From an uncultured Gammaproteobacteria bacterium (GTDB lineage Bacteria > Patescibacteriota > Patescibacteriia > Magasanikbacterales > GWA2-37-8), in contig CAYHBZ010000002.1 in NCBI GenBank assembly GCA_964355175.1, forward strand, positions 119,189 through 183,188: DNA of 64,000 nucleotides, written 5' to 3'. The translations under genes and the position numbers were made by a program. Below, piece by piece: positions 4,701 through 62,206 of this stretch (the first letter of the stretch is position 1; the number at the start of each line of letters is the position of its first letter). The notes beneath the pieces were generated by a model. The model searched no databases. It was not told the origin of the DNA and saw only the letters and a program-made list of their open reading frames with translations.

Positions 4701-5204
4701 TCAACTGGTTTGCAATACGGTATACCGCTCGAAGAATATGTCGACAAATTTACTTTCACTCGCTTTGAACCAGCCGGCATGACCGATCATCCAAATGTTC
4801 GTTCTTGTACCTCTATTATTGATTTCATCTTCCGCGTACTTGGTATGGAATATTTGGGACGCACTGATTTTGTCCAAGTCAAACCAGATGGTATTCAAAA
4901 AAATCGCGCGCAGCAATTGGAAAAATTGTTTGCTGAAGCCAGAGGACAAAAAACTTTGACCTTTGATGATAATAAAATGGAAACTCAGATTGCTCAAGTT
5001 ACTGAAGTGGATGAAATTGTCACCAAGACAACCACAATAAAAAATACTGTTTCCACCGCCAATGCCGAAACTAGTGGAGCGGAAAAAATGTTGTCGTCGA
5101 TGATGGGCGACGCGCCACCATGTCCGACTTGTGGACATATCACCATTCGCAACGGTAGCTGCTATAAATGTCTGAATTGCGGTAGCACCACCGGTTGCTC
5201 TTAA
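1701..5204 (+). CDS. nrdJ: ribonucleoside-diphosphate/triphosphate reductase, class II (adenosylcobalamin-dependent)
   Basis: 1167 aa. Active-site region NPCSEYMFLDD..CNLASMNL, many RNR class II conserved blocks, and a C-terminal Zn-ribbon CPTCGH..CYKCLNCGS. Confidence 0.95.
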   Translation: MQTATATKTFKVDDEFKYSPKGLRFPRHYTKDGVSPFDMFTYELRSSIIRQTSGQVIFEMHDVEVPKQWTQVATDILAQKYFRKAGVPQYDENGVAKMKADGTVETGPEKSMKQVAHRLAGTWRYWGERYGYFATALDAQVFYEELVYMLINQMVAPNSPQWFNTGLYWAYGINGPAQGHHYVDPDNGILTRSKDSYSHPQPHACFIQSIKDDLVNEGGIMDLWVREARLFKYGSGTGTNFSNLRGNGEKLSGGGRSSGLMSWLKIGDRAAGAIKSGGTTRRAAKMVILNVDHPDIEAFIDWKVKEEEKVAALIAAGYEGGYEGEAYLTVSGQNSNNSVRVSQDFMEAVVKDNGWELKNRTDGGVAKKMKARDLWDKIAVAAWRCADPGVQFDTNVNDWHTCPASGRINGSNPCSEYMFLDDTACNLASMNLAHYYDPETATFDVEGYKYTTRAWTVVLELSVLMAQFPSEEIAQMSFEFRTLGLGYANIGSLLMTAGIPYDSPEALAFAGTVTALMTAQSYETSAEMASYLGTFLRYGENREHMLRVMRNHRRAAFNAHEDEYESLAIKPVGIDPQYAPAYLLVAAREAWNKALEMGEKYGYRNAQTTLLAPTGTIGLLMDCATTGVEPDFALVKFKKLAGGGYFKIVNEAVPVALKTLGYNESEVSDIVDYLKGRATLKGAPAINPQSLTAKGLTAIDLEKIEKSLLSAFELQFVFNNWTLGEETMARLGFSSEQYLDPNFNFLKAIGFNDDELEIANEYVCGAMAIEGAPHLKTEHYKVFDTANKNGKKGKRFIHYLGHIRMMAAVQPFLSGAISKTINMPNEATVEDVKIAYMASWKLALKANAIYRDGCKMSQPLASKSDSKKDKVEEVKVEMVETKTEVMNEIKTSESTVSAHKTFSLSSQDQSVVNQMVSEDHAQIKYAHDGSSQGTKIYVHGEQRQMPYKRSGLTIKAKVAGQKIFLRTGEYPDGRLGEVFIDMYREGAAFRSMLNLFAISISTGLQYGIPLEEYVDKFTFTRFEPAGMTDHPNVRSCTSIIDFIFRVLGMEYLGRTDFVQVKPDGIQKNRAQQLEKLFAEARGQKTLTFDDNKMETQIAQVTEVDEIVTKTTTIKNTVSTANAETSGAEKMLSSMMGDAPPCPTCGHITIRNGSCYKCLNCGSTTGCS

Positions 5205-5230
5205 ACTCACGGAAAAACGCTTGTAGTGGA

Positions 5231-5260
5231 TCCCCCGACTAAGTCGGGGGATTTTGTTTT
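5231..5260 (+). terminator. rho-independent terminator after nrdJ
   Basis: Hairpin TCCCCCGAC-TAA-GTCGGGGGA followed by TTTTGTTTT. Confidence 0.6.
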
Positions 5261-5314
5261 AGAATTTGCTTTCGTAAACTATTTTTGTTAAGATGAAAAT
5301 CTATACTAAAATCT

Positions 5315-5854
5315 ATGACTAAAATTTATACAAAAACCGGAGATAAAGGCGAAACCTCATTGCTGGGCGGTGTGCGCGTCAGTAAAGATTGTATTACCTT
5401 ACGAGTGGTCGGAGAAGTAGATGAGCTCAACTCGGTGCTTGGCCAAGTGGTTGCTCATTTATATGGTGAAGAACCAGCCGAATTTTTGGAAAAAATTCAG
5501 AGTGATTTGTTTAAAGTGGGAGCGGAGTTGGCATCTTTGCAGATGGTCATGAATTCAAAAATTTTAAAAGTAGAAGAGGAAGAAATAATAGAATTGGAAA
5601 AAACTATTGATGAATATACCGAGCAGTTGCCGGAATTAAAGAATTTTATTTTACCAGGCGGTATTATTGCCGGCGCTACACTGCACCACGCCCGCACTAT
5701 TTGTCGCAAAGCGGAGCGTGAGTTGGTTTCTTTGGGAAAAGAGCAGTCGGTGCGCGTTGAGCTGTATCAGTATTTCAATAGGTTGAGCGATTATTTATTT
5801 ACTGCGGCGCGATTTGTAAATGCCCAAAATGGCGTGGAAGAAACAATTGTTTAG
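5315..5854 (+). CDS. pduO: ATP:cob(I)alamin adenosyltransferase, PduO type
   Basis: N-terminal YTKTGDKGETSL motif and ~180 aa helical bundle typical of PduO/MMAB-type ATR. Confidence 0.85.
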   Translation: MTKIYTKTGDKGETSLLGGVRVSKDCITLRVVGEVDELNSVLGQVVAHLYGEEPAEFLEKIQSDLFKVGAELASLQMVMNSKILKVEEEEIIELEKTIDEYTEQLPELKNFILPGGIIAGATLHHARTICRKAERELVSLGKEQSVRVELYQYFNRLSDYLFTAARFVNAQNGVEETIV

Positions 5855-5868
5855 TAGAAATTATTCAC

Positions 5869-5903
5869 ACTTGACAGGGAGCATTTTAGCTTCTACAATG
5901 ACA
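5869..5903 (+). promoter_or_regulatory. sigma70-like promoter (TTGACA-17-TACAAT)
   Basis: TTGACAgggagcattttagcttcTACAAT lies ~170 nt upstream of tRNA-Leu. Confidence 0.35.
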
Positions 5904-6074
5904 ATACTTTTTTCTCTACAAAGCTGCGGTAGAACTGATGTATTAATCGGATCGGATTCTGAAAGCATTCTCTCTCTGGCTACTTTATGATTCGTTATCT
6001 AGTAGTCGCGTTTTCTAGATTTGATTCGCCAATTGAAACATGCAATTCTTCTCGCAGCTTTGTGGAGAAAATTT

Positions 6075-6155
6075 GCTCGGGTGGTGTAATGGTAGCCACA
6101 AGGGACTTAAAATCCCTCGCCGAAAGGCATGCGGGTTCGAGTCCCGCCCCGAGCA
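6075..6155 (+). tRNA. tRNA-Leu (anticodon TAA)
   Basis: Manual fold. Acceptor GCTCGGG/CCCGAGC, D-loop with GG, anticodon stem AGGGA/TCCCT with loop CTTAAAA, long variable arm CGCCGAAAGGCAT, and T-arm GCGGG-TTCGAGT-CCCGC. CCA is not encoded. Confidence 0.8.
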
Positions 6156-6162
6156 CAAGAGT

Positions 6163-6190
6163 AAAGTCACTTTAAAAAGTGACTTTTTTA
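6163..6190 (+). terminator. terminator hairpin after tRNA-Leu
   Basis: AAAGTCACTTT-AAAA-AGTGACTTTTTT. Confidence 0.5.
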
Positions 6191-6300
6191 TTTTAGGTTA
6201 AAGCCGCAGTAGCCACCATTATCAGCTATTTACAAATTTTTGAATTAGGAGTATACTTAAACAAGTATTTAATTAAACAAGTAATAAATTAATATAACTT

Positions 6301-6636
6301 ATGCTCAGTGAGAAAGAAATTCAAAAGAACCTCAAAATTCTCAATGATACCGATAAAAGTATGGCGGCGACATTTAAGGTGTTAAGCGATGTTAATCGTT
6401 ATCGAATTTTCCGTATCTTGGTAGAACAGCCAAGACTCTCTGTTAGTACTATTGCTCAGATTTTGAACATCTCTCTACCGCTAGCCTCACAGCATCTAAA
6501 AATTTTAGTACAGGCAAATCTTCTACAAAAGGTAAAAGATGGTAAAAAAGTTTTCCCTATAATTGAGCAAAGCAATCCTTTTGTTCCAGCCATTCTCAAG
6601 ACAATCAAACACGCGTATAAAATGCGAGTTAAATAA
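6301..6636 (+). CDS. ArsR/SmtB-family HTH transcriptional regulator
   Basis: Central winged-HTH RYRIFRIL..LSVSTIAQILNISLPLASQHLKIL typical of the ArsR family. Confidence 0.8.
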   Translation: MLSEKEIQKNLKILNDTDKSMAATFKVLSDVNRYRIFRILVEQPRLSVSTIAQILNISLPLASQHLKILVQANLLQKVKDGKKVFPIIEQSNPFVPAILKTIKHAYKMRVK

Positions 6637-6651
6637 AAATTAATAAAATAG

Positions 6652-7143
6652 ATGAAAAAAATAATTGTACCAGTAGTTATATCAGCGTTGGTAGTTTTTT
6701 TGATAGGTTATTTTCTATGGACAGCTGCTCCACGCCAAGTAGCAGTGCAAAATCCGGTCAAACAGCCATCGTCACAACCGATTCAAAATATTTATAAAAA
6801 TGAAACGCATAATTTTTCATTAATTTTTCCTCAAACATGGGATAATTATAATGTTGTTGAACAAACAAACGATGATTTTGATACTGTTTGCTTTAGTTTT
6901 AAACAGCCACAGCCGTTTTGTATATTTAGTATACTTAAATTAAACAACAATCAATGGGAACAAACAAAACTAAAACAAGAAAAAAATATTATATTAAAAA
7001 CTGAAACGTCTGTTTTTCTTTGTGATGGATGTTGCAAACAAAGTGATGATATGTCTGGCGGTGGTCAATTTAATGATTTTCATACCAAGAGATGTGGTGA
7101 GGCACCAGAGATTCTTGAAACATTTAAAATTATAAGTAGTTAG
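6652..7143 (+). CDS. hypothetical secreted/membrane-anchored protein
   Basis: N-terminal TM/signal segment and CxxC pair. No family recognised. Confidence 0.55.
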   Translation: MKKIIVPVVISALVVFLIGYFLWTAAPRQVAVQNPVKQPSSQPIQNIYKNETHNFSLIFPQTWDNYNVVEQTNDDFDTVCFSFKQPQPFCIFSILKLNNNQWEQTKLKQEKNIILKTETSVFLCDGCCKQSDDMSGGGQFNDFHTKRCGEAPEILETFKIISS

Positions 7144-7179
7144 TTGAGTAGCGCCGCATTTTATTTATTCTAAATTTAT

Positions 7180-8439
7180 ATGAAAAAAAATCTTATATTT
7201 GGCGTTATTGCAGTCGCTATCACTATTTTATTGGCTTATAGCATTCGGTTGGCTGTGCAAAAGAAAACAACTTCTCCGGCGCTAGCATCGCAGCAGTCAG
7301 CTCAGCCGATCGATTGTATTGATGAACCAGAAGGAAAACCGGTGATTACTTCGCTATCTGTTACTTCTAGCAAACAGGGGACAAACATAGAAATATTTGG
7401 TTGTAATTTTTCTGGATTTGAAGGAGATAAAAAAGCATGGATCGAAAATGAGAAAGGAATAAAAGGAATTTTCTTTGTTTATGATGGGTCAACTTCAAAG
7501 CATTTAAGAGTTACATTAGAAGAAAAACTTTGTCAGATTGATACGATGTATTCAGGCCTACCTTGTGATACTTGGCTTACCCTTGTTCCGGGAGTATATA
7601 AAATATTTGTGGATTCTTGGGGAAAAGCGAGTAATAAAATTGAATTTACCGTTGATCAATTAGTAAAAAAAAGCACTCCTATTACTTATTATATTCTCGA
7701 TAAAACAAATACTAATCAGACTTTTTGTAATGGAGCTGATATGGACAGCGTTGGTTTTAAGGCTGCTTTAACTAAAAAAATTGATATAAATGTTCCTGAT
7801 AATTTAACAACTGAAGAAAAAATTATCAAAACCCTCAGTTTGGCCGCCGCCGCGAATTCTTTTAATAAACCTTATACTCGTATTGAAGAAATTTCTTATA
7901 AAAATAATATTGTCTACATGGGGCCAAACGAAGGGTGGGCAGGTTCATCTATTTTTTATTGTGCTTGGAAGCCGTTTGTAGAAAAGAATTTGGAACAGTT
8001 TGTAGATGTAAAAGAAATTGTTTGGGATGCTTTTCCCGCGGTTTTACCCAAAAAAACAGTAAAAATATTTTTTAATAACACAAAATTTGATCCAGGTTTA
8101 ACAGATTGCTCTAAAGTATATTCGGTGAATCGTTTTATCGAGCCTACTTCGGCAGTAGCGCGCGCGGCCCTAGAAGAATTGTTCAAAGGGCCGACAGCTA
8201 ATGAAAAAAAAGTTGGTTACCTTAGTAATTTAAATAGTGGGGTAAAAATTCAAAAACTAACCATTGAAAATGGGATTGCCAAAGTGGATTTTTCCGCGGA
8301 ATTAGAAAAAAATGTAGGAGGATCTTGTCGGGTTGCGGCTATAGTTGCTCAAATTAAGGAAACTTTAAAACAATTTCCCACTGTTCAAGATGTTGTAATT
8401 TCAATCGACGGTCGCATTGAAGATATTTTACAACCGTAA
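7180..8439 (+). CDS. membrane-anchored protein with C-terminal GerMN-like domain
   Basis: N-terminal TM. C-terminal ~100 aa (AALEELFKGPT..GYLSNL..IAKVDFSAE..GGSCRVAAIVAQIKETLKQFPTVQDVVISIDG) matches the GerMN/Gmad2 pattern. Confidence 0.65.
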   Translation: MKKNLIFGVIAVAITILLAYSIRLAVQKKTTSPALASQQSAQPIDCIDEPEGKPVITSLSVTSSKQGTNIEIFGCNFSGFEGDKKAWIENEKGIKGIFFVYDGSTSKHLRVTLEEKLCQIDTMYSGLPCDTWLTLVPGVYKIFVDSWGKASNKIEFTVDQLVKKSTPITYYILDKTNTNQTFCNGADMDSVGFKAALTKKIDINVPDNLTTEEKIIKTLSLAAAANSFNKPYTRIEEISYKNNIVYMGPNEGWAGSSIFYCAWKPFVEKNLEQFVDVKEIVWDAFPAVLPKKTVKIFFNNTKFDPGLTDCSKVYSVNRFIEPTSAVARAALEELFKGPTANEKKVGYLSNLNSGVKIQKLTIENGIAKVDFSAELEKNVGGSCRVAAIVAQIKETLKQFPTVQDVVISIDGRIEDILQP

Positions 8440-8454
8440 TAAAAATAAAAAAGT

Positions 8455-9081
8455 ATGAATATCTTTAAAACCTTGAAAATTTTTGGTGTTATATTAGTAT
8501 TGATAATTTTATCCGGTGGAGCATCTTTCGTGTTTTCAAGTGATTTAAAAGATGATAGTGAGAGCTGTGTGCCTGTATTATATGCAGAACAAGATGCGGG
8601 AGGGAACAGCGCTTATTTGGCAAACGGTGTTGTGTCTTTGAATATTGGTCAATTTTTGGATGACACTTTGGGCTCAGGAAAAAAAAGGAAAAAGGTATCT
8701 CAATTTCAGCTAAATGGGCCTTGGAATAGTTGTGATATTTTAAAGGAAGTAACTGTGCATCATCTTGGGACAGGCGCTATTTCCGATATTGATAAAATAT
8801 ATATTACGGATGAGTCAATGAATATTCTCACTCCAATTCAAAATTTTTACGGTAATAGATCGGTCAAGCTGGTTCTAAAATCTCCGTATGTTATTGCGAA
8901 AAATTCATACAATAATTTTTTTGTTGTTATAAATACGGCAACGCAGTCGTCCACAGGCACACATCAGATCGCTATTTATCCTGACAATAATGGAGCGAGT
9001 GATTTTGTCCTTAGTTCAGTAGGACATATAGTGGCTGGAGCAGAAAATGTTATTTCCACTTCGTTTACCATCATTCCTTAA
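8455..9081 (+). CDS. hypothetical secreted protein
   Basis: N-terminal TM/signal. No family recognised. Confidence 0.55.
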   Translation: MNIFKTLKIFGVILVLIILSGGASFVFSSDLKDDSESCVPVLYAEQDAGGNSAYLANGVVSLNIGQFLDDTLGSGKKRKKVSQFQLNGPWNSCDILKEVTVHHLGTGAISDIDKIYITDESMNILTPIQNFYGNRSVKLVLKSPYVIAKNSYNNFFVVINTATQSSTGTHQIAIYPDNNGASDFVLSSVGHIVAGAENVISTSFTIIP

Positions 9082-20211: not shown

Positions 20212-20260
20212 TTCATGCGCTTGATTTTTGGTTAATATATGTTAAAATTATGTTATTATC

Positions 20261-20437
20261 ATTCTCCACGAAACAATTATTTTTTAACAGTGAAACGTTC
20301 GCACAATTTGCAACTCCTTCCGCTCTGGCCGTGAACTCGTCGTTTGGCTCCTCAAACAGCACGGCCAGCCACGCGTCAGGACTCACAAATTGTCTGCTCA
20401 CTTTTTCAATGTTAAAAAATAATTGTTTCGTGGAGAA
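20261..20437. repeat. 177-bp element bounded by perfect 29-bp inverted repeats
   Basis: ATTCTCCACGAAACAATTATTTTTTAACA (20261-20289) and its exact reverse complement (20409-20437) flank a 119-bp GC-richer core. The core contains hairpin CTGGCCGTG..CACGGCCAG. Confidence 0.5.
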
Positions 20438-20455
20438 TTCTAAATTTATAAGTTT

Positions 20456-21178
20456 ATGTCAGGACATTCAAAATGGCACAATATTCAACAGCGCAAGGGT
20501 AAACAGGATGCCAAGCGCAGTAGTATGTTTTCTAAATTTTCTAAGGCGATTACTATCGCCGCACAGCGTGGCGGCGGTGATCCCGACTCTAATTTTTCTT
20601 TGCGTATCGCGATAGATAAAGCCAAAGCGGTATCAATGCCAAAGGATAATATTGAGAGGGCTGTCAAAAAAGGTATTGGTGCGGATGGTGGTGCTCAGAT
20701 CGAAGAAGTGTACTACGAAGCTTTTGGTCCAGGCGGTACAGCAGTGATTATTAAATGTCTCACTGATAATAAAAATCGTACCGTGGCTGATGTAAAACAT
20801 ATTTTGACCAAAAATGGTGGCAGTATGGGAGGTAATGGTAGTGTGATGTGGATGTTTGAACAGTGTGGAATTATTCAGTTTGAAAAGTCTAAAATACCGG
20901 GAGGTATGGAGCTTTTTGAATTGGAAATTATTGAAGCTGGAGCGGACGATATATCTATTGAAGGGGATCAAGTAGAGATAAAAACTAAGGTAGAAAATTT
21001 TGGCAAAGTATCTGGTAAACTAAAAGAGCTTGGTATTGAAGCGGACGATGCTGGTCTGCGCTACGTCGCCAAAGAAGAAATGGCCATAGACGAAGAAGTG
21101 CGTGAACAAATATCCGGATTATTTGAAGCCCTAGAAGAAAATGATGATGTGGATGATTATTATACCAACGCCGGTTAA
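20456..21178 (+). CDS. yebC: YebC/PmpR-family probable transcriptional regulatory protein
   Basis: MSGHSKWHNIQQRKGKQDAKR.. N-terminus and overall YebC architecture. Confidence 0.9.
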   Translation: MSGHSKWHNIQQRKGKQDAKRSSMFSKFSKAITIAAQRGGGDPDSNFSLRIAIDKAKAVSMPKDNIERAVKKGIGADGGAQIEEVYYEAFGPGGTAVIIKCLTDNKNRTVADVKHILTKNGGSMGGNGSVMWMFEQCGIIQFEKSKIPGGMELFELEIIEAGADDISIEGDQVEIKTKVENFGKVSGKLKELGIEADDAGLRYVAKEEMAIDEEVREQISGLFEALEENDDVDDYYTNAG

Positions 21179-22684: not shown

Positions 22685-23335
22685 ATGTTAAAAGTTTTAT
22701 ACGAAGACAATCACCTAATCGCTGTATTCAAACCGGCCGGTGTTTTGGTACAAGGGGATGATACCGGGGATGAATGTCTAATGGATGAAGTGAAAGATTA
22801 TATCAAAGAAAAATATAATAAGCCTGGGCAGGTATTTTTGGGGCTTTTGCATAGATTGGATCGTCCGGTGTCGGGGGTAGTTTTATTTTCCAAAACCAGT
22901 AAGGGAGCCGCTAGATTATCCGAGCAGATTCGTAGTCATACAGTGCAGAAAACTTACCGGTGTCTGGTAGAGGGTAAGCTTAAAAAAGAAAAAGGCACTT
23001 TGGTAAATTGGCTCAGAAAAGATGAACAAAAAAATAAGACCACTGTTTTTGATGTAGAAAGAGGGGATGCAATGTATGCTGAATTGGATTACAAGGTATT
23101 AAAGACTGATGGTAAAAATTCACTGCTGGAAATTAATCTCAAGACCGGTCGTCCACACCAGATTCGCTCCCAGCTGGCGCATCTAGGGCATCCGATAATT
23201 GGCGATCTAAAATACGGCGCCAGATATGCCAATCCAGATAAATCCATTTCACTTTGTTCAACTTCTTTCACTTTTGAAACCGCTACTGGTGGAGAAACAA
23301 AAACAGCGACTGTAGAGCCGCCGTTTTCTCTATAA
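22685..23335 (+). CDS. RluA-family pseudouridine synthase
   Basis: HRLDRPVSGVVLFSKT catalytic-Asp motif of the RluA family. Confidence 0.85.
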   Translation: MLKVLYEDNHLIAVFKPAGVLVQGDDTGDECLMDEVKDYIKEKYNKPGQVFLGLLHRLDRPVSGVVLFSKTSKGAARLSEQIRSHTVQKTYRCLVEGKLKKEKGTLVNWLRKDEQKNKTTVFDVERGDAMYAELDYKVLKTDGKNSLLEINLKTGRPHQIRSQLAHLGHPIIGDLKYGARYANPDKSISLCSTSFTFETATGGETKTATVEPPFSL

Positions 23336-23411
23336 CATTTTGTCATTCCCGTGAAAACGGGAATCTAATGAATTAATGTGGATTCCCGTTTTCACGGGAA
23401 TGACAAAATGT
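23335..23411. terminator. bidirectional hairpin: perfect 27-bp inverted repeat (GTCATTCCCG family) between convergent genes
   Basis: TTGTCATTCCCGTGAAAACGGGAATC (23339-23365) and its exact reverse complement (23381-23406), separated by a 15-bp spacer. Each arm contains the sub-hairpin CCCGTGAAAACGGG. Confidence 0.55.
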
Positions 23412-24106
23412 TATATTTTCTCAAAGAGCGGTTTATATATATCTTCCTTGATATCTATTTTTAATTCTGTGTGATTTATCTTGTATGTGAATTCTATTGG
23501 CGCGTCCGATATTACGCAGAGCGGTTGTTTTTCTGTGCCTTCGCCCATCACCAGTACGGCGGCGGTAGCCAGACTATCGGCAATATCGGTTTTGGAAAAT
23601 TCAAATGGTCGTCCGAATAAATCCGGTTTACCAATATAATTTTTTATCCCTTTGAACCCGGCGTATCCTAGAGAGATGCCGACCACGCCGGCGCGTAGAG
23701 GCAATAGGCGACTATCGGTAACGATTACCCCTAGTTTTTTGAGACGATATTTTTTTCGTATGTGATCACGAATTATTTTGGCACTGGCGTAGCTATTCTG
23801 TGGTAATAATATTAATTTGCCATTGGCGTTGGATTCGTCCACGCCGGCGTTGGCCAATACATCACCATCTTTTATCGTAAGGTATACATATTTGGTTTTT
23901 ACACCCCAATCACTTTCTTTTTTTATGATAGCGTCTTTTTCTTTTTCATTTTTTACCACACAAAATCTGCCCTCTGATAAAGCAATAATTTTGGAAGTTA
24001 CTACTACGACATCTTTCTCTTTTATTTTGGGTAAATATTTATCCAAAAAATCCAAAAGATTTTCGTTTTCTTTAAACAGTTTGGTTTTGAACGGTTGGAC
24101 TAGCAT
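23411..24106 (-). CDS. CofE-like protein (F420-0:gamma-glutamyl ligase family fold)
   Basis: VVVTSKIIALSEGR, ANAGVDESN and DSRLLPLRAGVVGISLGYAG blocks match the CofE/nitroreductase-associated ligase family pattern. Confidence 0.65.
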   Translation of the reverse strand: MLVQPFKTKLFKENENLLDFLDKYLPKIKEKDVVVVTSKIIALSEGRFCVVKNEKEKDAIIKKESDWGVKTKYVYLTIKDGDVLANAGVDESNANGKLILLPQNSYASAKIIRDHIRKKYRLKKLGVIVTDSRLLPLRAGVVGISLGYAGFKGIKNYIGKPDLFGRPFEFSKTDIADSLATAAVLVMGEGTEKQPLCVISDAPIEFTYKINHTELKIDIKEDIYKPLFEKI

Positions 24107-27112: not shown

Positions 27113-27327
27113 AATGTTTCACCTCCTGGGTACTCTCTTTAAAGTGAGAGTCTTTTAATTTTTTCTACTCGCGAGTGCGAGAAAAAATTTTTTAGAAGAA
27201 TCTTTTTACAAGACAAGCATTGTTGTAAAAAAATTTTTTCTTTCGACCTACATATATTATAATCTTTTCCTTTGGAAAATGGAATAGTATTTGGGAAAGT
27301 TATACACAGGGTGTCAATGGAATCTAA

Positions 27328-27506
27328 TTTATAAAATATTTTAATTTATTTTTATACTTTGCTTCGCTTTGGACAAATTGAAAATTTTTTCTTTACGTAA
27401 AATGCATAACTCGCTTCGCTCAAACAGATGCATTTTACTAAAAAAATTCTCAATTTGTTTCCAAGAGCTTCGCAGAGTATAAAAATAAATTAAAATATTT
27501 TATAAA
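27328..27506. promoter_or_regulatory. ~180-bp complex palindrome with three direct GCTTCGC motifs at ~52-54 bp phasing
   Basis: The arm TTTATAAAATATTTTAATTTATTTTTATAC (27328-27357) is mirrored at 27477-27506. There is an inner palindrome GTAAAATGCAT..ATGCATTTTAC. GCTTCGC occurs at 27361, 27413 and 27467. Confidence 0.4.
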
Positions 27507-27523
27507 TTAAAAAACTTTATTCT

Positions 27524-27744: not shown

Positions 27745-28512
27745 TTACTCTGAATCACCGGTTTGTTTTTTCATTATTTCAATCTTTGGTCCTTTCCACG
27801 CTTTTATTTTTAGCGCGGCTTCGGCCGCTTCGGTTTGGGCTTCTTGTTTACTGCTACCCATGCCCGAGGCAATTAATTCTTTTTCTAAAAATATACCTAC
27901 CTTAAACATTTTGTCATGATCTGGTCCACTTTCTTCAAGTACTCTATAGGTTGGAGTGACACCTATTAATTCTTGAGCGGATTCTTGGAAGCGACTCTTG
28001 GCGTCCATATACAGACCATTTTCTAAAATGTAAGGTAATTTAGTAAGAACATAGCGGGCAATGAATTGCTTGGCACCATCATATCCTTGATCTACATATA
28101 TGGCACCCACTACTGCTTCGAAAGCATTCGCCATGATATAGTCTCGAGCTTTGGTGCCAGCGTCTTTGGCTTCACCGTGGCTGAGAAATAGATATGGCTC
28201 CATGCCAATTTCATACGCGACGCTGGCCAGCATTTTGGCATTTACCAGAGCGGCGCGCCAGTTGGTGAGTTCACCTTCTGGATTTTCATATTGATTGTAA
28301 AGATATTCAGTGACGACTAATTCTACCACAGCATCTCCTAAAAATTCAAGTCTTTCGTTTTGGCCCAGAGCGAAGTCATGGTGCTCATTGAGATAAGAGC
28401 GGTGCACGAAGGCTTGGTATAAGATGTTGATGTTTTTGAATTTTACTCCTAGTTTATTTTCTAGTAAGGGGAAATTTTTTTCCTGTACTTCGGGTAAACT
28501 GTTGATGTCCAT
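27745..28512 (-). CDS. rnc: ribonuclease III
   Basis: RNase III signature ERLEFLGDAVVELVVTEY and a C-terminal dsRBD. Confidence 0.93.
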   Translation of the reverse strand: MDINSLPEVQEKNFPLLENKLGVKFKNINILYQAFVHRSYLNEHHDFALGQNERLEFLGDAVVELVVTEYLYNQYENPEGELTNWRAALVNAKMLASVAYEIGMEPYLFLSHGEAKDAGTKARDYIMANAFEAVVGAIYVDQGYDGAKQFIARYVLTKLPYILENGLYMDAKSRFQESAQELIGVTPTYRVLEESGPDHDKMFKVGIFLEKELIASGMGSSKQEAQTEAAEAALKIKAWKGPKIEIMKKQTGDSE

Positions 28513-30999: not shown

Positions 31000-31025
31000 A
31001 TTCCCGACTAAGTCGGGAATTTTTA
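31000..31025. terminator. bidirectional terminator ATTCCCGACTAAGTCGGGAAT
   Basis: A-run, hairpin and T-run between the HAD gene (+) and the convergent TrmB-like gene (-). Confidence 0.6.
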
Positions 31026-38340: not shown

Positions 38341-38468
38341 GCCTCCATCCGTCAACGCGCTCCCCCGACTTGGTCGGGGGCGGGAAGGAAGTTAAAACCA
38401 CCCACTACTCACTTTGGGGCTAAGATTTGGCCATAGAGTGAGGAGGATTTTCGGGTGGTTTTGCTTTC

Positions 38469-49946: not shown

Positions 49947-50873
49947 ATGCACAAATTACCAAAGGTTATCTTTGTTATCGGTCAGACCGCTTCCGGTAAA
50001 ACCGCCTTGGCTATAGAATTAGCCAAGAAATTTAACGGTGCTATTATAAATGCCGACTCTAGGCAGGTTTATAAAAAAATGGATATTGTCACGGCCAAGC
50101 CGCTGGCCGACAAGAACAGCTCTAAGTCGGAATATATTGTGGAAGGAATAAAGCATTATCTAATGGACATTTATGACCCAGGCAAGAATTTTACTTTAGC
50201 TGGTTTCAAAAAGCATGCTTTGGAGGCGATAAAAACAATTTTAAATAATGGTCAACTGCCTATAGTGGTGGGAGGAACCGGATTATATATTTGGTCTTTG
50301 GTGGATAATTTGGATATTCCGGCGGTCGCTCCCAATAAAAAATTACGCAGTAGTCTAGAAGAAAAATCTTTGCCTGATTTGGTAAAATTATTAAAAAATG
50401 TGGACGCAAAATCCGCAGAAAAATTAGATTTAAAAAACAAGCGCAGAGTTCTTAGGGCGCTTGAAGTATCTCTAAGCAGTGGCGAATCCTTTACGAAACA
50501 ATCCACCAAATCGGATCTAATTTATAATAGTCTGCAGATTGGTTTGGCCTGGAAGCGAGATGAAATTTATAAACGAATTGAAGATAGGGTGGATATGCAG
50601 ATAAAAAATGGAGCAATAGAAGAAACTAAAAATTTAATTGAAAGTTACCCTGATAATTTACCCAGTTTGAGCACTATCGGCTACAAACAAATTGCCGCTT
50701 TTTTACGAGGGGAGAGTACTTTGGAAGAAGCCGTGCAACAATTTAAGCGTGACGCTCGTCGTTATGCCAAACGCCAGGAGACTTGGTTTAAAAGAGATGA
50801 TAGGATACAGTGGATTGAGAAAAATGATGCCGCGGCTGCCAGCGAGCTAGTGAAAAAATTCTTGGAAAAATAA
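49947..50873 (+). CDS. miaA: tRNA dimethylallyltransferase
   Basis: P-loop GQTASGKT, DSRQVYK and the overall MiaA architecture. Confidence 0.9.
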   Translation: MHKLPKVIFVIGQTASGKTALAIELAKKFNGAIINADSRQVYKKMDIVTAKPLADKNSSKSEYIVEGIKHYLMDIYDPGKNFTLAGFKKHALEAIKTILNNGQLPIVVGGTGLYIWSLVDNLDIPAVAPNKKLRSSLEEKSLPDLVKLLKNVDAKSAEKLDLKNKRRVLRALEVSLSSGESFTKQSTKSDLIYNSLQIGLAWKRDEIYKRIEDRVDMQIKNGAIEETKNLIESYPDNLPSLSTIGYKQIAAFLRGESTLEEAVQQFKRDARRYAKRQETWFKRDDRIQWIEKNDAAAASELVKKFLEK

Positions 50874-50880
50874 TTAAAAC

Positions 50881-51053
50881 AAAAAAATACCGTACAATTT
50901 TCACCTGATAAAAGTTCGCATAATTGGCTATAAATTTTCGTTATGGCCCTAAGGGTAGGGCCATTGTCCCGACTAAGTCGGGACACCACTCAAATTTACT
51001 TACGCCAATTAGGGGCTCACTTTTATGCGGTAAAAATTGTACGGTATTTTTTT
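50881..51053. mobile_element. MITE-like element copy 1: ~130-bp conserved core with imperfect TIRs, inserted in the loop of a bidirectional terminator palindrome
   Basis: The host palindrome AAAAAAATACCGTACAATTTT (50881-50901) and AAAAATTGTACGGTATTTTTTT (51032-51053) flank the core 50902-51031. The core is ~95% identical to 60961-61081. The core ends CCTGATAAAAGT..CATAATTGGC and GCCAATTAGG..ACTTTTATGCGG are inverted. Confidence 0.55.
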
Positions 51054-51056
51054 GTT

Positions 51057-52943
51057 TTAATTATTTAGAGGAATCTCATCTCCGGTGAGTTCCAGTTGTT
51101 TGCCGGTGACGCTGTCTTGGGCTTGGATGTGCACTTTGGAAACCAGGATATTTTGAGTAGGATTTTTCTTATTGATAACTACTGAGAATGGCAGGGCTAA
51201 GACATCGCTATTTTCGGTAAGCTCAGGGATATCCCATACCAGATGTTTGGAGTTTTGGTCAAAGGACAGGGTGCCGGCTGGAGTAGACGAAGCGCTCATA
51301 AAGGTGATGTCGCCAAACAAATCAGCAGTTACTTTGATATTTTTGAGAGTGTGAAAAGTGTTGGAAAGAATCCAGGTAATATCGTGATTTTCGCGTTCTT
51401 TACTGTCGGAGCTGATCTCATTTTTTTGTTTAAATTTTAAATCTGAATTCAAAGTAATTATAATGGCGTTGCCAGAAATTGTCTGGGTAGCGCCCGTTTT
51501 ATCAGTATAGGTCAAGTTCGTGTTTACAGTAACTTGGTAGGTATCAACACTCGACCAAGGAGCGGTATCACTGTTTTTTATCGGAAGTTGGAACTCAATA
51601 TTAGTTTGTCCGGAAGGCTTTATTAGATTTAGATCTTTGTCTTTACTGCTATCCCACGCCAAAGCAGCACGACGAATGGAATCTGAAATTTGTGAGCCAG
51701 TAATATCACCATCATGTTTGTCGGCAATGTCGGACCAAGCTAAAACACTTTGTTTTTTGTAAGATGGAGAGTCTACTACCAATTGAACCTTTGCTTTACT
51801 GATATCATCTTTGCCGGCATTTTTCACGGCGATAGTAAAGTTTAAAATTTCACCTGGCTTGGAATCAAAATCGGTCAAAGAACCGTTGATAGCGGTATTA
51901 ATAATTACCGAATTCTTAATCAGTTCCGTCCTTAGGGTGGATTCAGCCAAAAGGTAGCTGGTTTGAGCTTGTTGGTCCGCCAACGAAACTTGCACCTTTA
52001 GATCCGAAGCATCAGCCGAAGCGTCATTGAATTGTCCACTGAAAGAGATTACGTATTGGTTGGCCAAAGTAGAAGTAGCGGCTTTTATATTCCAAACATT
52101 TTTCTCCAGCGGCAAGCTCGAGCTAGCCATTACAAAGCTGGGAGGGAAAATAGGAGACACTATCAAGTTTTTGTTGGCTAAATTGTCTTTGCTTTTGATA
52201 GTAATGGTATAGGTCGAAGGACTGCCTACCGCCACTTTGTCGAGACCGGCAATGGCCACCGATATTGGGGCTTGGTTTGGTTTGATATCCAAGGTGGCTA
52301 CTTTTTGCATCTCGGAATTGAAATTTTCTGGAGTGAAGTTGAGTAACGCGCGCCAGGAAATAGCGGTGCCGACCGATCCGAAAGAATTACCGGTAATTTG
52401 CAAAGTTTTTTCTTCGTGTGGTTTTAATGTGCCGAGATCCCATGCATTTTTTCCAATATTTTTTGGTTCCAGTGAGCTTTGTAGGAAAGAGAATCCTGTA
52501 GGATAGTTTAGGGTTAAGGTGACTTTGTTTAAATTTACACCCTGATTATTTTTGAAGCGTATGCTATAGGTAGTGGTGGCCCCTACGACAAAATTTTGCG
52601 GTCCTTCAATCGCCAAATCCACCTGTGAGTCATCGAATTGTCCACCATTTGGTAGGAATAAGAAGCCGGTCCAGGCCATGGCGGCTAATAAGGCAACGGT
52701 GAAAAAGAATTTGAACATGCCAGCGATAAAAGATCCACTTGAAGTGCGTTTGATCTCGCGCATGTTTGGCAAGCGACCGCTGTCATCTTCGTAAATATCT
52801 TTTAATTGGCGACCGATTTTTTCGCTAGTTTGATCCTCGGCGGATTCTTCTGCCACTACTTTGCGAACGCGGCGTGGTTTTTTTGGAGCAGTTGATTCGT
52901 TTGAAAAAAATTTTTCTTCGGACATAAATTTATTTATTTTCAA
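51057..52943 (-). CDS. hypothetical membrane-anchored protein with large beta-rich extracytoplasmic region (628 aa)
   Basis: N-terminal basic region, one TM, then repetitive beta-strand-like segments. Overlaps the upstream gene by 14 nt, suggesting an operon. Confidence 0.6.
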   Translation of the reverse strand: MKINKFMSEEKFFSNESTAPKKPRRVRKVVAEESAEDQTSEKIGRQLKDIYEDDSGRLPNMREIKRTSSGSFIAGMFKFFFTVALLAAMAWTGFLFLPNGGQFDDSQVDLAIEGPQNFVVGATTTYSIRFKNNQGVNLNKVTLTLNYPTGFSFLQSSLEPKNIGKNAWDLGTLKPHEEKTLQITGNSFGSVGTAISWRALLNFTPENFNSEMQKVATLDIKPNQAPISVAIAGLDKVAVGSPSTYTITIKSKDNLANKNLIVSPIFPPSFVMASSSLPLEKNVWNIKAATSTLANQYVISFSGQFNDASADASDLKVQVSLADQQAQTSYLLAESTLRTELIKNSVIINTAINGSLTDFDSKPGEILNFTIAVKNAGKDDISKAKVQLVVDSPSYKKQSVLAWSDIADKHDGDITGSQISDSIRRAALAWDSSKDKDLNLIKPSGQTNIEFQLPIKNSDTAPWSSVDTYQVTVNTNLTYTDKTGATQTISGNAIIITLNSDLKFKQKNEISSDSKERENHDITWILSNTFHTLKNIKVTADLFGDITFMSASSTPAGTLSFDQNSKHLVWDIPELTENSDVLALPFSVVINKKNPTQNILVSKVHIQAQDSVTGKQLELTGDEIPLNN

Positions 52944-60916: not shown

Positions 60917-60934
60917 ATATGTTCAAGTATCACG

Positions 60935-61107
60935 CCGGATAAGATGTCTAATAATTTTTACCTGATAAAAGTTCGCATAATTGGCTATAAATTTTCGTTA
61001 TGGCCCTAAGGGTAGGGCCATTGCCCTTTCAGGGCACCACTCAAATTTATTGACGCCAATTAGGGGCTCACTTTTATGCGGAAAAAATTATTAGACATCT
61101 TATCCGG
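60935..61107. mobile_element. MITE-like element copy 2, inserted in the loop of a different host palindrome
   Basis: The host palindrome CCGGATAAGATGTCTAATAATTTTT (60935-60959) and its reverse complement (61083-61107) flank a core that is ~95% identical to copy 1. The internal hairpin is GCCCTTTCAGGGC here, against GTCCCGACTAAGTCGGGAC in copy 1. Confidence 0.55.
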
Positions 61108-62206
61108 CTCGGCTGGTTTGAAATTTAGAATATTGCTCGGTGACAAATTTCTCTATCTCGGTTTTGAAGCGGTCGGTGGAGAAATTTTGGGCGTGGGTGC
61201 GAATTTTTGTGCTATCAAAAGTAGTGTGGTCAAAATTGAGTAGGGTGTGTAGGAGTGATTCCCAAGTTTGTTCGGTAAAGAATACGCCGGTTTGGCTAGG
61301 GATTACTGTTTCGGTGGCGCCGCCTTGATTGAAAGCGATTATTGGACGACCAGCGGCCATAGCCTCGAGTGGTGTGATGCCGAAATCTTCTTTTTGAGGA
61401 TGAATAAAAGCAATGGCTTCGCTAAGTAATTTAATTTTTTCTTCTTCGGAGATTTTGCCGTAGAATTCAATATTGGCTTTGGCCATTCTTTTTAGGTGAG
61501 GGTATTCGGTACCGGTGCCAAAAATTTTTAGCGGCCAACCTAGACGGTTGAAGACTTTTATTATCAAGTCCATGCGTTTGTATGGTACCAAGCGTCCGCC
61601 GGCTACAAAATAATTTCCCAATTTAGGAGCGATTTGAAATCTAGCCGTGTCTACCGGAGGAAAAATTACTTCACTGGTGCGGCGATAATATTTTTCAATA
61701 CGGCGTTTGACGGTATTTGAGTTGGCGATAAAATGATCAACACGCTGGGTGCTAAGTTGATCCCACAAACGCAGACGATGGGTCAGTAGTGGTAAAATAA
61801 TTTTCACCAGTCGGTTGTTTTTTAAGTCTGAAAGATAGTTGTTACCATCGCCCCACAAAAAGCGTGGTGGAGTGTGGCAGTAGGCGATATGGAGAGTATC
61901 GGGTGAAGTAATAACTCCTTTGGCAAAACCCGAAGATGATGAGATTACCAGATCAAATTTTTGTAATTGGTGGCGTTCGGTGGCCAGGGGCATGAGCGGT
62001 AGATACCACTGAAAAATTTGATTTACAAATGGCAGGCGATTGAGAAAAGAAGTATGAATTTTTTCACTATCCAAGTAGTTAATTTTATTGGCATCGTGGA
62101 ATAAAACAAAAATTGGCGCATCCGGCCAAATTTCATGTAAGGCTTTGAGCACTTTTTCCGCCCCTCCATCCTGAGAAAGATAATCGTGAACTAGGGCCAC
62201 CTTCAT
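61100..62206 (-). CDS. glycosyltransferase family 4
   Basis: FGITPLEAMAAGRP motif. Confidence 0.85.
   Translation of the reverse strand: MKVALVHDYLSQDGGAEKVLKALHEIWPDAPIFVLFHDANKINYLDSEKIHTSFLNRLPFVNQIFQWYLPLMPLATERHQLQKFDLVISSSSGFAKGVITSPDTLHIAYCHTPPRFLWGDGNNYLSDLKNNRLVKIILPLLTHRLRLWDQLSTQRVDHFIANSNTVKRRIEKYYRRTSEVIFPPVDTARFQIAPKLGNYFVAGGRLVPYKRMDLIIKVFNRLGWPLKIFGTGTEYPHLKRMAKANIEFYGKISEEEKIKLLSEAIAFIHPQKEDFGITPLEAMAAGRPIIAFNQGGATETVIPSQTGVFFTEQTWESLLHTLLNFDHTTFDSTKIRTHAQNFSTDRFKTEIEKFVTEQYSKFQTSRAG

Follow-up and report, generated by a model that had tools for sequence, protein, structure and literature searches.

A MITE-Like Insert at the Tips of Host Hairpins in a Candidatus Magasanikbacteria Clade

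Introduction

IS1397 and ISKpn1 are known to insert into the loops of REP sequences. REPs are also entered by members of the IS110/IS1111 family, as described for ISPpu9 (PMC12288879) and for the insertion of IS1111 into the REP of QMITE2 (PMC5896051). The hairpin-forming MITEs of bacteria have been reviewed and include the Correia/NEMIS elements of Neisseria, the pneumococcal RUP, the enterobacterial ERIC, and QMITE1 and QMITE2 of Coxiella (PMC10969869, PMC5896051).

Here, we describe an insert, designated E, which lies at the tip of a host hairpin at the 3' end of miaA in a stretch of 64,000 nt (the window) from an uncultured bacterium whose closest named relatives are Candidatus Magasanikbacteria. 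E resembles the hairpin-forming MITEs in being small (MITEs measure 100–200 bp), gene-less, and multi-copy, in its inverted ends and long rod, in its intergenic or 3' UTR placement, and in its presence or absence between relatives. Known MITEs, however, have clear target-site duplications (TA, or 7–11 nt) and a known or suspected parent insertion sequence, neither of which was found for E, and E departs from them further in being restricted to the very dyad of a host palindrome and in having ends with conserved mismatches, including a directly repeated GYTCRC motif. With the REP-targeting insertion sequences E shares an insertion that is directed to a hairpin, and the IS110 family likewise inserts without target duplication; those elements are autonomous, carry a transposase, and use one conserved repeat family, whereas E is gene-less and its host palindromes all differ, and any targeting must therefore read the structure or the AT-rich dyad, not a common sequence.

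The IVS of 23S rRNA is an insert of ~100–150 nt at a helix tip, sporadic among strains and removed by RNase III. As in the IVS, an apical loop is replaced in E and the stem extended while the base of the helix stays intact, but E lies in terminators and not in rRNA helices, has no sequence similarity to the IVS, and its processing by RNase III is hypothetical; IVS are mentioned for Coxiella (PMC5896051). SPRITE and REP repeats are, like E, associated with hairpins resembling terminators at gene 3' ends, although there the repeat itself is the hairpin and has the same sequence everywhere, whereas E is nested inside a host hairpin that is unique to its site. The attC sites of integrons are imperfect palindromes of 57–141 nt with conserved basal mismatches and a variable terminal structure, and are recognized as folded single strands. 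E is similar to these sites (PMC8876359) in its imperfect palindrome with conserved basal mismatches and a variable tip, but has no GTTRRRY/RYYYAAC core, cassette array, or nearby integrase.

Our literature searches yielded no account of an element of this type from Patescibacteria. With genomes of about 1 Mb, members of this group have hardly any DNA to spare, and few mobile elements have been recognized in them; a repeat family maintained solely at the dyads of terminator hairpins would show a hiding place for selfish DNA. E is also a natural test of the extent to which enlargement of a terminator loop is tolerated.

Results

Structure of the Two Copies in the Window

The gap between miaA and a convergent DUF11/CLIPPER-like gene is filled entirely by a single continuous hairpin-forming unit (50868–51066). 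Its left arm (50868–50901), which is locus-specific, includes the miaA stop codon (50871–50873), its right arm (51033–51066) includes that of the DUF11/CLIPPER-like gene on the minus strand (51057–51059), and the two arms, of 34 nt each, are perfectly complementary. The original prediction had described this flank as a perfect 21-bp inverted repeat unique to the locus: The repeat is indeed perfect and unique in the window, but longer than was thought. Between the arms lies copy 1 of E (50902–51032), which comprises 131 nt with a conserved core of the form ACC...GGT (50903–51031); the sole mismatch at the border of arm and core is that between C at 50902 and A at 51032. Two GYTCRC motifs on the plus strand, GTTCGC (50914–50919) and GCTCAC (51015–51020), lie opposite each other in the fold, and the apex carries a conserved hairpin, hp1 (ATGGCCCTAAGGGTAGGGCCAT; 50943–50964), and a variable hairpin, hp2 (GTCCCGACTAAGTCGGGAC; 50966–50984), the tip of which is that of the host terminators at 5234 and 31002. 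The same hp2 motif had been claimed for three host terminators, and is found (CCCGACTAAGTCGGG) in two of them, at 5234 and 31002; the third, at 38364, carries only a one-mismatch version.

Copy 2 (60960–61082) is located between two same-strand glycosyltransferase genes, at a site termed c2. It lies in its own perfect 26-nt palindrome (60934–60959 and 61083–61108), which had been overlooked previously; the right arm includes the stop codon of the upstream glycosyltransferase gene (61100–61102), and its outer part is derived from the ancestral gene end and spacer. This host hairpin is situated within the glycosyltransferase operon and has no T-run; the hosts of E are thus not terminators in every case. 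The two copies share an identical block of 63 nt (50904–50966 and 60961–61023), where shuffled sequences give an expectation of 0 matches. Over 128 nt, the two are 89.8% identical, a value lowered by the unequal lengths of the variable hairpin; without this hairpin, the identity is 97.2% (105/108), and the earlier estimate of ~95% for the core against 60961–61081 was therefore roughly right. The absence of a conserved open reading frame was also recognized correctly: hp2 ranges from 11 to 19 nt among the copies, with length differences that are not multiples of three, and protein coding was rejected since these indels shift the frame.

Distribution of E

E was found in eight locus-by-species instances at six genomic sites, which belong to the window species, a Candidatus Magasanikbacteria MAG, and one metagenome contig. 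Scanning 185,579 GTDB representatives with a 20-mer of hp1 detected three copies in only one other species, MAG CALRGC01 (L005, L006, and L007), a scan of the JGI metagenomes with a 20-mer of the right arm detected one diverged copy (L008), and walking along syntenic contigs revealed a further copy of the MAG at the c2 site (L014/L015). A third copy of the window species is present at the parB/tsaD junction about 8 kb past the right end of the window (L021), so that this species has three copies within 20 kb. The distribution is narrow and patchy, with one GTDB species and one JGI contig, and scans of viral contigs with patterns of E and of the related inserts E2 and E3 described below gave no match. 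The copy number of E is low.

In all eight instances, E is positioned at the dyad center between perfect, site-specific arms of 19–36 nt that reach the conserved end of the element; its length is 120–131 nt, and the instances are 88–100% identical outside hp2. If insertion in palindromes of ~40 bp were random, it would not always strike the dyad. Each of the further copies lies inside a palindrome, and in a different one at every site, as the original prediction requires. All of the six sites but c2 separate convergent genes and have an A-run and a T-run on the outside. The genomic neighborhood consists of housekeeping genes (thrS, miaA, glycosyltransferases, parAB, tsaD, ruvABC, gyrA, and rnc). 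Four contigs from other samples (L002, L003, L016, and L022) end inside E or its arm; assembly breaks of this kind are expected for a repeat, and were counted toward the reading of E as a mobile repeat.

Filled and Empty Orthologous Sites

To compare orthologous sites, relatives were located through their MiaA homologues (88, 81, 79, 77, and 71% identity), which led to syntenic contigs. The miaA site is filled in the window species and empty in five relatives (L009, L012, L014, L017, and L020), all of which have instead a plain palindrome of A-run, stem, and T-run measuring 31–54 bp: AAAAAAATATCGGTAAAATTTACCGATATTTTTT in L009, AAAAAAATACCTCTAGTAGAGGTATTTTTTT in L014, and AAAAACACCGGTAAAAATTTTACCGGTGTTTTT in L020, with similar hairpins having 5-nt loops in L012 and L017. 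The outer part of the left arm of copy 1 is orthologous to the plain terminator of the relatives, and an outer arm (TAATTAAAAYAAAAAAATA), both stop codons included, is common to L009 and the window, which shows that the palindrome belongs to the host and that E is an insert at its tip. The five orthologous plain terminators without E also bear out the initial view that the flank is not a part of the element.

The c2 site is filled in two species (the window species and the MAG) and empty in five. The genes overlap or are only 3–6 bp apart in L009, L012, L017, and L026, L020 carries no E but a hairpin of 16 bp whose loop measures 11 nt, and in the window and the MAG a hairpin homologous to that of L020 carries E. 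The gene-proximal arm stems from the ancestral gene end and spacer (L009, ATGTCTTCAG; L014, ATGTCTTCTCAG). With three relatives having no hairpin and L020 the hairpin only, the order of events can be read either way: The hairpin came first, or the element came first and was then excised. An inverted duplication of one flank upon insertion, an idea derived from c2, is weakened by the E-less hairpin of L020 and by the finding that all five empty miaA sites are full palindromes. The parB/tsaD site contains E in two species (the window species and the MAG), E2 in two (L023 and L024), and a plain terminator in one (L026, a more distant relative). L009/L025, the closest species to that of the window, is without E at miaA and at c2, and about 24 kb of its sequence contain no copy. 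Taken together, the sequences show that E is an insert relative to the hairpin, centered on the dyad at every site and without evident coding capacity.

Copies at Orthologous and Non-orthologous Sites

Outside hp2, the miaA copy of the window (win_c1) is identical (108/108) to the L005 copy, which is located at a non-orthologous site in the MAG, and 99.1% identical to the L007 copy, whereas copies at orthologous sites are less alike across the two species (91.7% at c2 and 95.4% at parB); the flanking genes are 75–86% identical at the nucleotide level. The two hp1 variants, A (AUGGCCC...GGGCCAU) and B (ACGGCUC...GAGCCGU), do not follow the sites either: At c2, variant A is found in the window and variant B in the MAG, and at parB the reverse. 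This shows that the relationships among E copies follow neither locus orthology nor species. Since identical copies occupy non-orthologous sites while orthologous copies are less alike, E is an insert that spreads.

Junctions and Possible Turnover of Hairpin Tips

The left flanks end in T(2–6)A and the right flanks start with TA(2–6); TA is present at the left end in seven of nine sequences and at the right end in eight of nine, and a longer direct repeat is absent. As a self-complementary dinucleotide within a perfect palindrome, TA gives no means of separating a duplication from the dyad symmetry. Two readings of the junctions can be distinguished. The T/A-runs may belong to the element, as is suggested by the alignment of E with E3, in which case integration would be blunt at an AA|TT dyad and without duplication; this reading is favored because the plain terminators of the relatives have tips in which an A-run is followed by a T-run. 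Alternatively, a duplication of the TA at the center of a T(n)A(n) tip, as in IS630/mariner, would fit the junctions.

The hairpin tips themselves vary. A contig of the window species that comes from a second sample, L004, matches the window at 99.8% over 3.1 kb, and the two diverge only at the tip of hp2 (TTAC versus GACTAAGTC); it should be noted that this contig has 3.5x coverage, and its hp2 may be an assembly chimera with another E copy. The hp2 of the window is the hairpin of the host terminators at 5234 and 31002 and is absent from the loci of the relatives, and the stems of orthologous terminators differ between species and are still perfect palindromes. As far as can be judged from sequence, this pattern suggests templated conversion between hairpins.

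Fold and Covariation

The whole copy 1 unit folds as one rod with a tip forked into hp1 and hp2, with a minimum free energy of −76.6 (plus strand) and −86.0 kcal/mol (minus strand), compared with about −35 for shuffled sequences; for both window units, the fold energy corresponds to z = −10 to −12 against dinucleotide shuffles. The RNAalifold consensus of the E copies contains 51 pairs, and the few substitutions are almost exclusively in loops or compensated. Pairs 48/67 and 52/63 of hp1 are of one type in six copies, of the other in three, and broken in none of the nine sequences, the double compensatory changes (U–A to C–G and C–G to U–A) being present in three of the nine. The stems of hp2 covary as well (GUCCC, GCCC, GCCCC, and GGCC). 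This demonstrates that the fold of E is maintained through compensatory changes.

The GYTCRC pair is located at the base of the rod and is not inverted; it forms a loop of two G–C/Y–R pairs, a tandem mismatch, and two further pairs. Where GTTCGC faces GCTCAC, the mismatch, flanked by G–C pairs, is a tandem U.C/C.U on the plus strand and a tandem G.A/A.G on the minus strand, and the strand with the tandem G.A folds better by 9–14 kcal/mol in both E and E3. The arms contain zero G–U pairs across ~200 paired positions, which points to a symmetry that is probably kept at the DNA level. The conserved mismatches in the "TIRs" of E and the compensation in hp1 and hp2 are also expected of a functional RNA or of a single-stranded DNA structure. 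An assignment of the strand of a putative RNA was attempted and abandoned: The energies favor the minus strand of the window, but loop types, wobble pairs, and gene orientation conflict, and the single wobble pairs in E point both ways, with one favoring each strand.

Related Insert Families

When about 250 kb of the clade were searched for hairpins with long arms and a large "loop", only E and three other insert families were recovered, which we designate E2, E3, and E4. E2 is found in L012 (3897–4014) and L020 (2559–2676), and also in L023 and L024, where an insert of ~70 nt occupies the parB/tsaD apex. E3 lies in the window on the plus strand (20280–20420) at the center of a palindrome (20243–20456) that has no T-run, and has a homologue in L005 (4398–4584); E4 is likewise found in the window (27325–27509). 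The covariance model of E matches E3 on the plus strand only (43.2 bits, E-value 1.6e-7), and E2 weakly (34 bits). The alignment of E with E3 has co-linear termini of ~35 nt (TTTTTTAAC-AG-TGAAACGTTCGCACAATTTG ... CAAATTGTCTGCTCACTTTTTCAATGTTAAAAAA) and unrelated interiors. Kept ends with a swapped interior are expected if a mobilizing enzyme recognizes the ends, and would represent the classic pattern of non-autonomous elements with a common mobilizing enzyme.

The GYTCRC motif is present on both arms in E, E2, E3, and E4, in the form of TTTCGC/GCTCAA in E2 and CTTCGC/CTTCGC in E4, and an "AACYCG-hairpin-CUCAAA" motif is common to otherwise different insert families. E is therefore a member of a small superfamily within a Candidatus Magasanikbacteria (Patescibacteria/CPR) clade. 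E2 copies within one species differ mainly at one hairpin tip, and the tetraloop of the E2 hairpin, GCGA, lies on the strand opposite to that of the motif.

Comparison with Known Element and RNA Classes

E has several of the generic features of a MITE: It is short (below ~300 bp), gene-less, and multi-copy, with filled and empty sites. Terminal inverted repeats are present and imperfect, with ACC-(2-nt mismatch)-ATAAAAGT on one side, ACTTTTAT-(2-nt mismatch)-GGT on the other, and a T-run and A-run outside; these ends may resemble mariner-type ITRs. The junction TA is compatible with IS630/Tc1-mariner, of which no IS630-like element was seen in the sampled DNA. Neither the window nor the ~84 kb examined of its contig, the 463,850-bp NODE_6 of ERZ4201063, contained a transposase, integrase, or HUH gene, as judged from 30 ORFs of the window searched against Pfam and the precomputed annotation of NODE_6 (159–199 kb). 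The covariance model search of about 250 kb of related loci revealed no transposase-bearing parent with matching ends, and the intact relative that the original prediction had proposed to look for was thus not encountered in the sampled DNA. Given neither a parent nor a clear target duplication, the sequences do not establish assignment to a specific transposon family. The initial proposal of a small non-autonomous mobile element that targets hairpins or palindromes is nonetheless supported, with "MITE" denoting a form and not a demonstrated mechanism.

In Rfam searches, only three tRNAs reached the gathering score in the window. The core of E, for which a known RNA family had been considered initially, matched no family at gathering thresholds or at E-values ≤10, where E, E2, and E3 gave only generic long-hairpin matches (plant miRNA precursors and snoRNAs) far below the cut-offs. 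A promoter scan detected no sigma-70-like promoter within E, and a terminator scan called no terminator in E, where the "loop" measures 131 nt compared with 3–8 nt for an intrinsic terminator; the host arms with their A/T-runs fit an intrinsic bidirectional terminator and match the plain terminators of the relatives.

Several further classes were considered and rejected. REP/BIME are G+C-rich palindromes of 20–40 bp with one sequence at many sites, often tagged with GTAG/CGTC and accompanied by a RAYT gene; the arms around E differ from site to site, and neither the GTAG tag nor a RAYT gene was found in the examined DNA. An SRP RNA in the interior of E3 found no match in Rfam. The other candidates were dismissed from reading the sequences: integron attC sites, as there are no R''/R' cores (RYYYAAC...GTTRRRY) at the base and the copies are single ones between housekeeping genes; a hammerhead, as CUGAUAA does not have the G of CUGAUGA; a canonical K-turn, as two Watson–Crick pairs separate the bulge from the tandem G.A; a dif/Xer site, as CGCATAA-like words are present without an 11-6-11 architecture; and an IS91-type GTTC target, as the motif is internal and away from the junction.

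Discussion

Our preferred reading, which we hold with slightly better than even confidence, is that E is a non-autonomous mobile DNA element of ~130 bp, MITE-like in form, which inserts at hairpin dyads. The ends of E are conserved and imperfectly inverted over ~35 nt. They consist of a T-run, then A and CC, 2 mismatched nt, a stem of 8 bp, the GYTCRC loop, and a second stem of 8 bp, and they enclose a variable interior ending in two hairpins. Integration would take place at the dyad center (AA|TT or TA tip) of pre-existing AT-tipped palindromes, the targets being mostly bidirectional intrinsic terminators in short gaps between convergent genes, and would be carried out by a trans-acting enzyme that recognizes the conserved termini and the hairpin target. 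The inserted rod would stack coaxially on the host stem and leave the terminator base and U-tract intact, which is probably the reason why copies persist at hairpin tips where there is little spare intergenic DNA. Termination would presumably be preserved despite E, and RNase III (rnc, 27745–28512) may process transcripts across the long perfect stem.

The conserved fold also raises the question of whether E, E2, E3, and E4 could be a structured RNA module, which would be part of an operon transcript or form the 3' end of the transcript of the gene upstream, and in which the perfect closing helix would serve as an RNase III stalk or terminator stem, the G.A and hp1 loops would bind a protein or RNA, and spread would be secondary. 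The very stable fold (z about −10 to −12), the two double compensatory changes in hp1, the covarying hp2 stems, and the almost invariant unpaired segments fit such a module, as do the tandem-G.A strand, which folds 9–14 kcal/mol better in E and E3 and has hp2 loops of GUAA or GAA, the GYUCRC/GYUCRC loop and "AACYCG-hairpin-CUCAAA" shared by otherwise different families, and an RNase III encoded in the genome. We nevertheless consider it unlikely: E, E2, and E3 have no Rfam match, no promoter was detected inside E, and the strand signals conflict, with the GCGA tetraloop of E2 on the other strand, one wobble pair each way, and, among tandem genes, co-transcription of the G.A strand in the case of E2 and of E at c2 but of the U.C strand in the case of E3. 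Arms without a single G–U pair in roughly 200 paired positions speak for DNA-level symmetry, and the narrow, patchy presence and absence at orthologous sites is unlike that of a housekeeping RNA. An explanation without any enzyme, by which replication would switch templates between extruded hairpins at the microhomology of A/T-runs and thereby also keep the arms complementary, seems quite unlikely to us, even though it draws on a range of observations. Neither a clear target duplication nor a transposase was found in the examined DNA, the insertion point is always the dyad, and the length of the junction T/A-runs varies from 2 to 6 nt. The window and L004 differ only at the hp2 tip, where the window has the tip of the host terminators at 5234 and 31002, and the parB/tsaD apex holds E in two species and E2, with its unrelated interior, in two. 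Orthologous arms differ at several positions by species with complementarity still perfect, and in L014 the right junction (TAAAAATTG) repeats the left one in inverted orientation, with nothing corresponding to it in L020, whose hairpin is without E. An ectopic copy of 130 nt, however, requires two precise switches, and three copies in 20 kb together with identical copies in another species suggest a rate far above that of known templated mutagenesis; the conserved termini of E and E3 are better explained by recognition than by microhomology, and the L004 difference comes from the contig with 3.5x coverage and a possibly chimeric hp2. Very improbable is that E is merely an ordinary oversized terminator or a chance repeat, vertically inherited and immobile. 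Its terminator positions and the A-run and T-run flanks at most sites agree with this, but the presence/absence data already contradict it, as the orthologous terminators of five relatives do not contain E. In addition, identical copies occupy non-orthologous sites in different species, shuffles give an expectation of 0 matches, and the host hairpins of c2 and E3 have no T-run.

Beyond the preferred reading of E as a MITE-like mobile element, it is possible, if doubtful, that E, E2, E3, and E4 together constitute a new kind of mobile DNA, confined to hairpin tips, directed by structure to a dyad of any sequence without duplication, recognized through the GYTCRC/GYTCRC loop as single-stranded DNA, and moved by an enzyme or by template switching. 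The template-switching variant of this idea would also rewrite ordinary hairpin tips and keep terminator arms complementary. If targeting is structural, so that any palindrome serves regardless of sequence and nothing is duplicated, the mechanism would be a new one, and the tandem-mismatch motif provides a concrete handle for a search for a partner protein. E-type elements also break the assemblies of these genomes, with four contigs ending in them, and may pass wrongly for sRNA genes or CRISPR-like repeats.

Related Inserts at the Tips of Host Palindromes

The element E, a gene-less rod of ~130 nt lying at the dyad center of site-specific palindromes, shares its type of position with other insert families of the same clade. 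The second family, E2, is ~70 nt long and occupies the apex of perfect palindromes that differ from site to site (L023 10848–10978, L024 ~960–1052, L020 2559–2676, and L012 3897–4014, all from related genomes); an example reads GTGACTTTTTCGC...hairpin with loop GCGA...CATAACCCGCTCAAAAGTAAC, and a search of E2 against Rfam gave no match. The apex of the parB/tsaD terminator is filled by E2, and the same apex holds E in two other species. It should be noted that the thrS–miaA spacer measures 330–525 bp in several relatives (L014 9476–10001, L017 9506–10001, and L020 2558–3072) versus 3 bp in the window; the extra DNA in L020 includes one copy of E2.

E3 (window 20243–20456, core 20280–20420; second copy at L005 4398–4584) has termini that are co-linear with those of E, whereas its interior is different, being 79% conserved between the two species that carry it. 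It sits upstream of yebC–ruvC at the center of a palindrome that is perfect over 29 nt and 85% matched over 53 nt, and the L005 copy has the 8-nt direct repeat CGTTCACT on both sides. E4, adjoined by tRNA-Arg/tRNA-Lys genes (window 27325–27509), is a 117-nt insert between perfect arms of 34 nt each that are 97% A+T; GCTTCGC is present on both arms, and the apex, AACUCG-CUUCG-CUCAAACAG, is similar to those of E3 and E2.

The tip of hp2, the variable apical hairpin of E, is in copy 1 the hairpin CCCGAC-TAA-GTCGGG, which is also present at two terminators in the window (5234–5248 and 31002–31018) and recurs with one mismatch at 38364–38378; it was not found in ~250 kb of related genomes.

Assemblies of the window lineage are fragmented by E elements; contigs of other samples end within E or an E arm at one end (L002, L003, and L016) or at both (L022).

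Origin and Evolution of the Host Palindromes

Orthologous miaA and parB terminator stems, compared across L009, L012, L014, L017, L020, L021, L007, L025, and L026, differ at many positions between species (gene identity 75–86%), yet nearly all are still perfect palindromes, often up to a single central base, which suggests fast concerted evolution of both arms. In L020 (13470–13527), a 16-bp hairpin with a ~20-nt leader separates two glycosyltransferase genes that formerly abutted. Comparison with L009 12741–12748, L012 20797–20801, and L017 20311–20314 shows one arm to consist of the old gene end plus spacer and the other of an inverted copy thereof; this looks like the de novo birth of a hairpin through inverted duplication.

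Between convergent genes at window 23331–23415 lies a perfect inverted repeat of 35 nt with a 15-nt spacer, and because each arm contains a terminator-like hairpin (TTCCCGTGAAAACGGGAA), two back-to-back terminators here form a larger palindrome.

Recombinase and Retroelement Genes near parB and tsaD

In L025, from the species closest to the window, parB and tsaD are set apart by two additional genes. A large serine recombinase (507 aa, Resolvase and Recombinase domains) and a type I-like N6_Mtase/Methylase_S gene both adjoin tsaD in the region 4361–8796, which is probably an integrated island. In another relative (contig C6Ah5Wt6), the surroundings of parB encode a reverse transcriptase (RVT_1) that is accompanied by the accessory gene bAvd, as in diversity-generating retroelements, and also a LAGLIDADG_3 protein.
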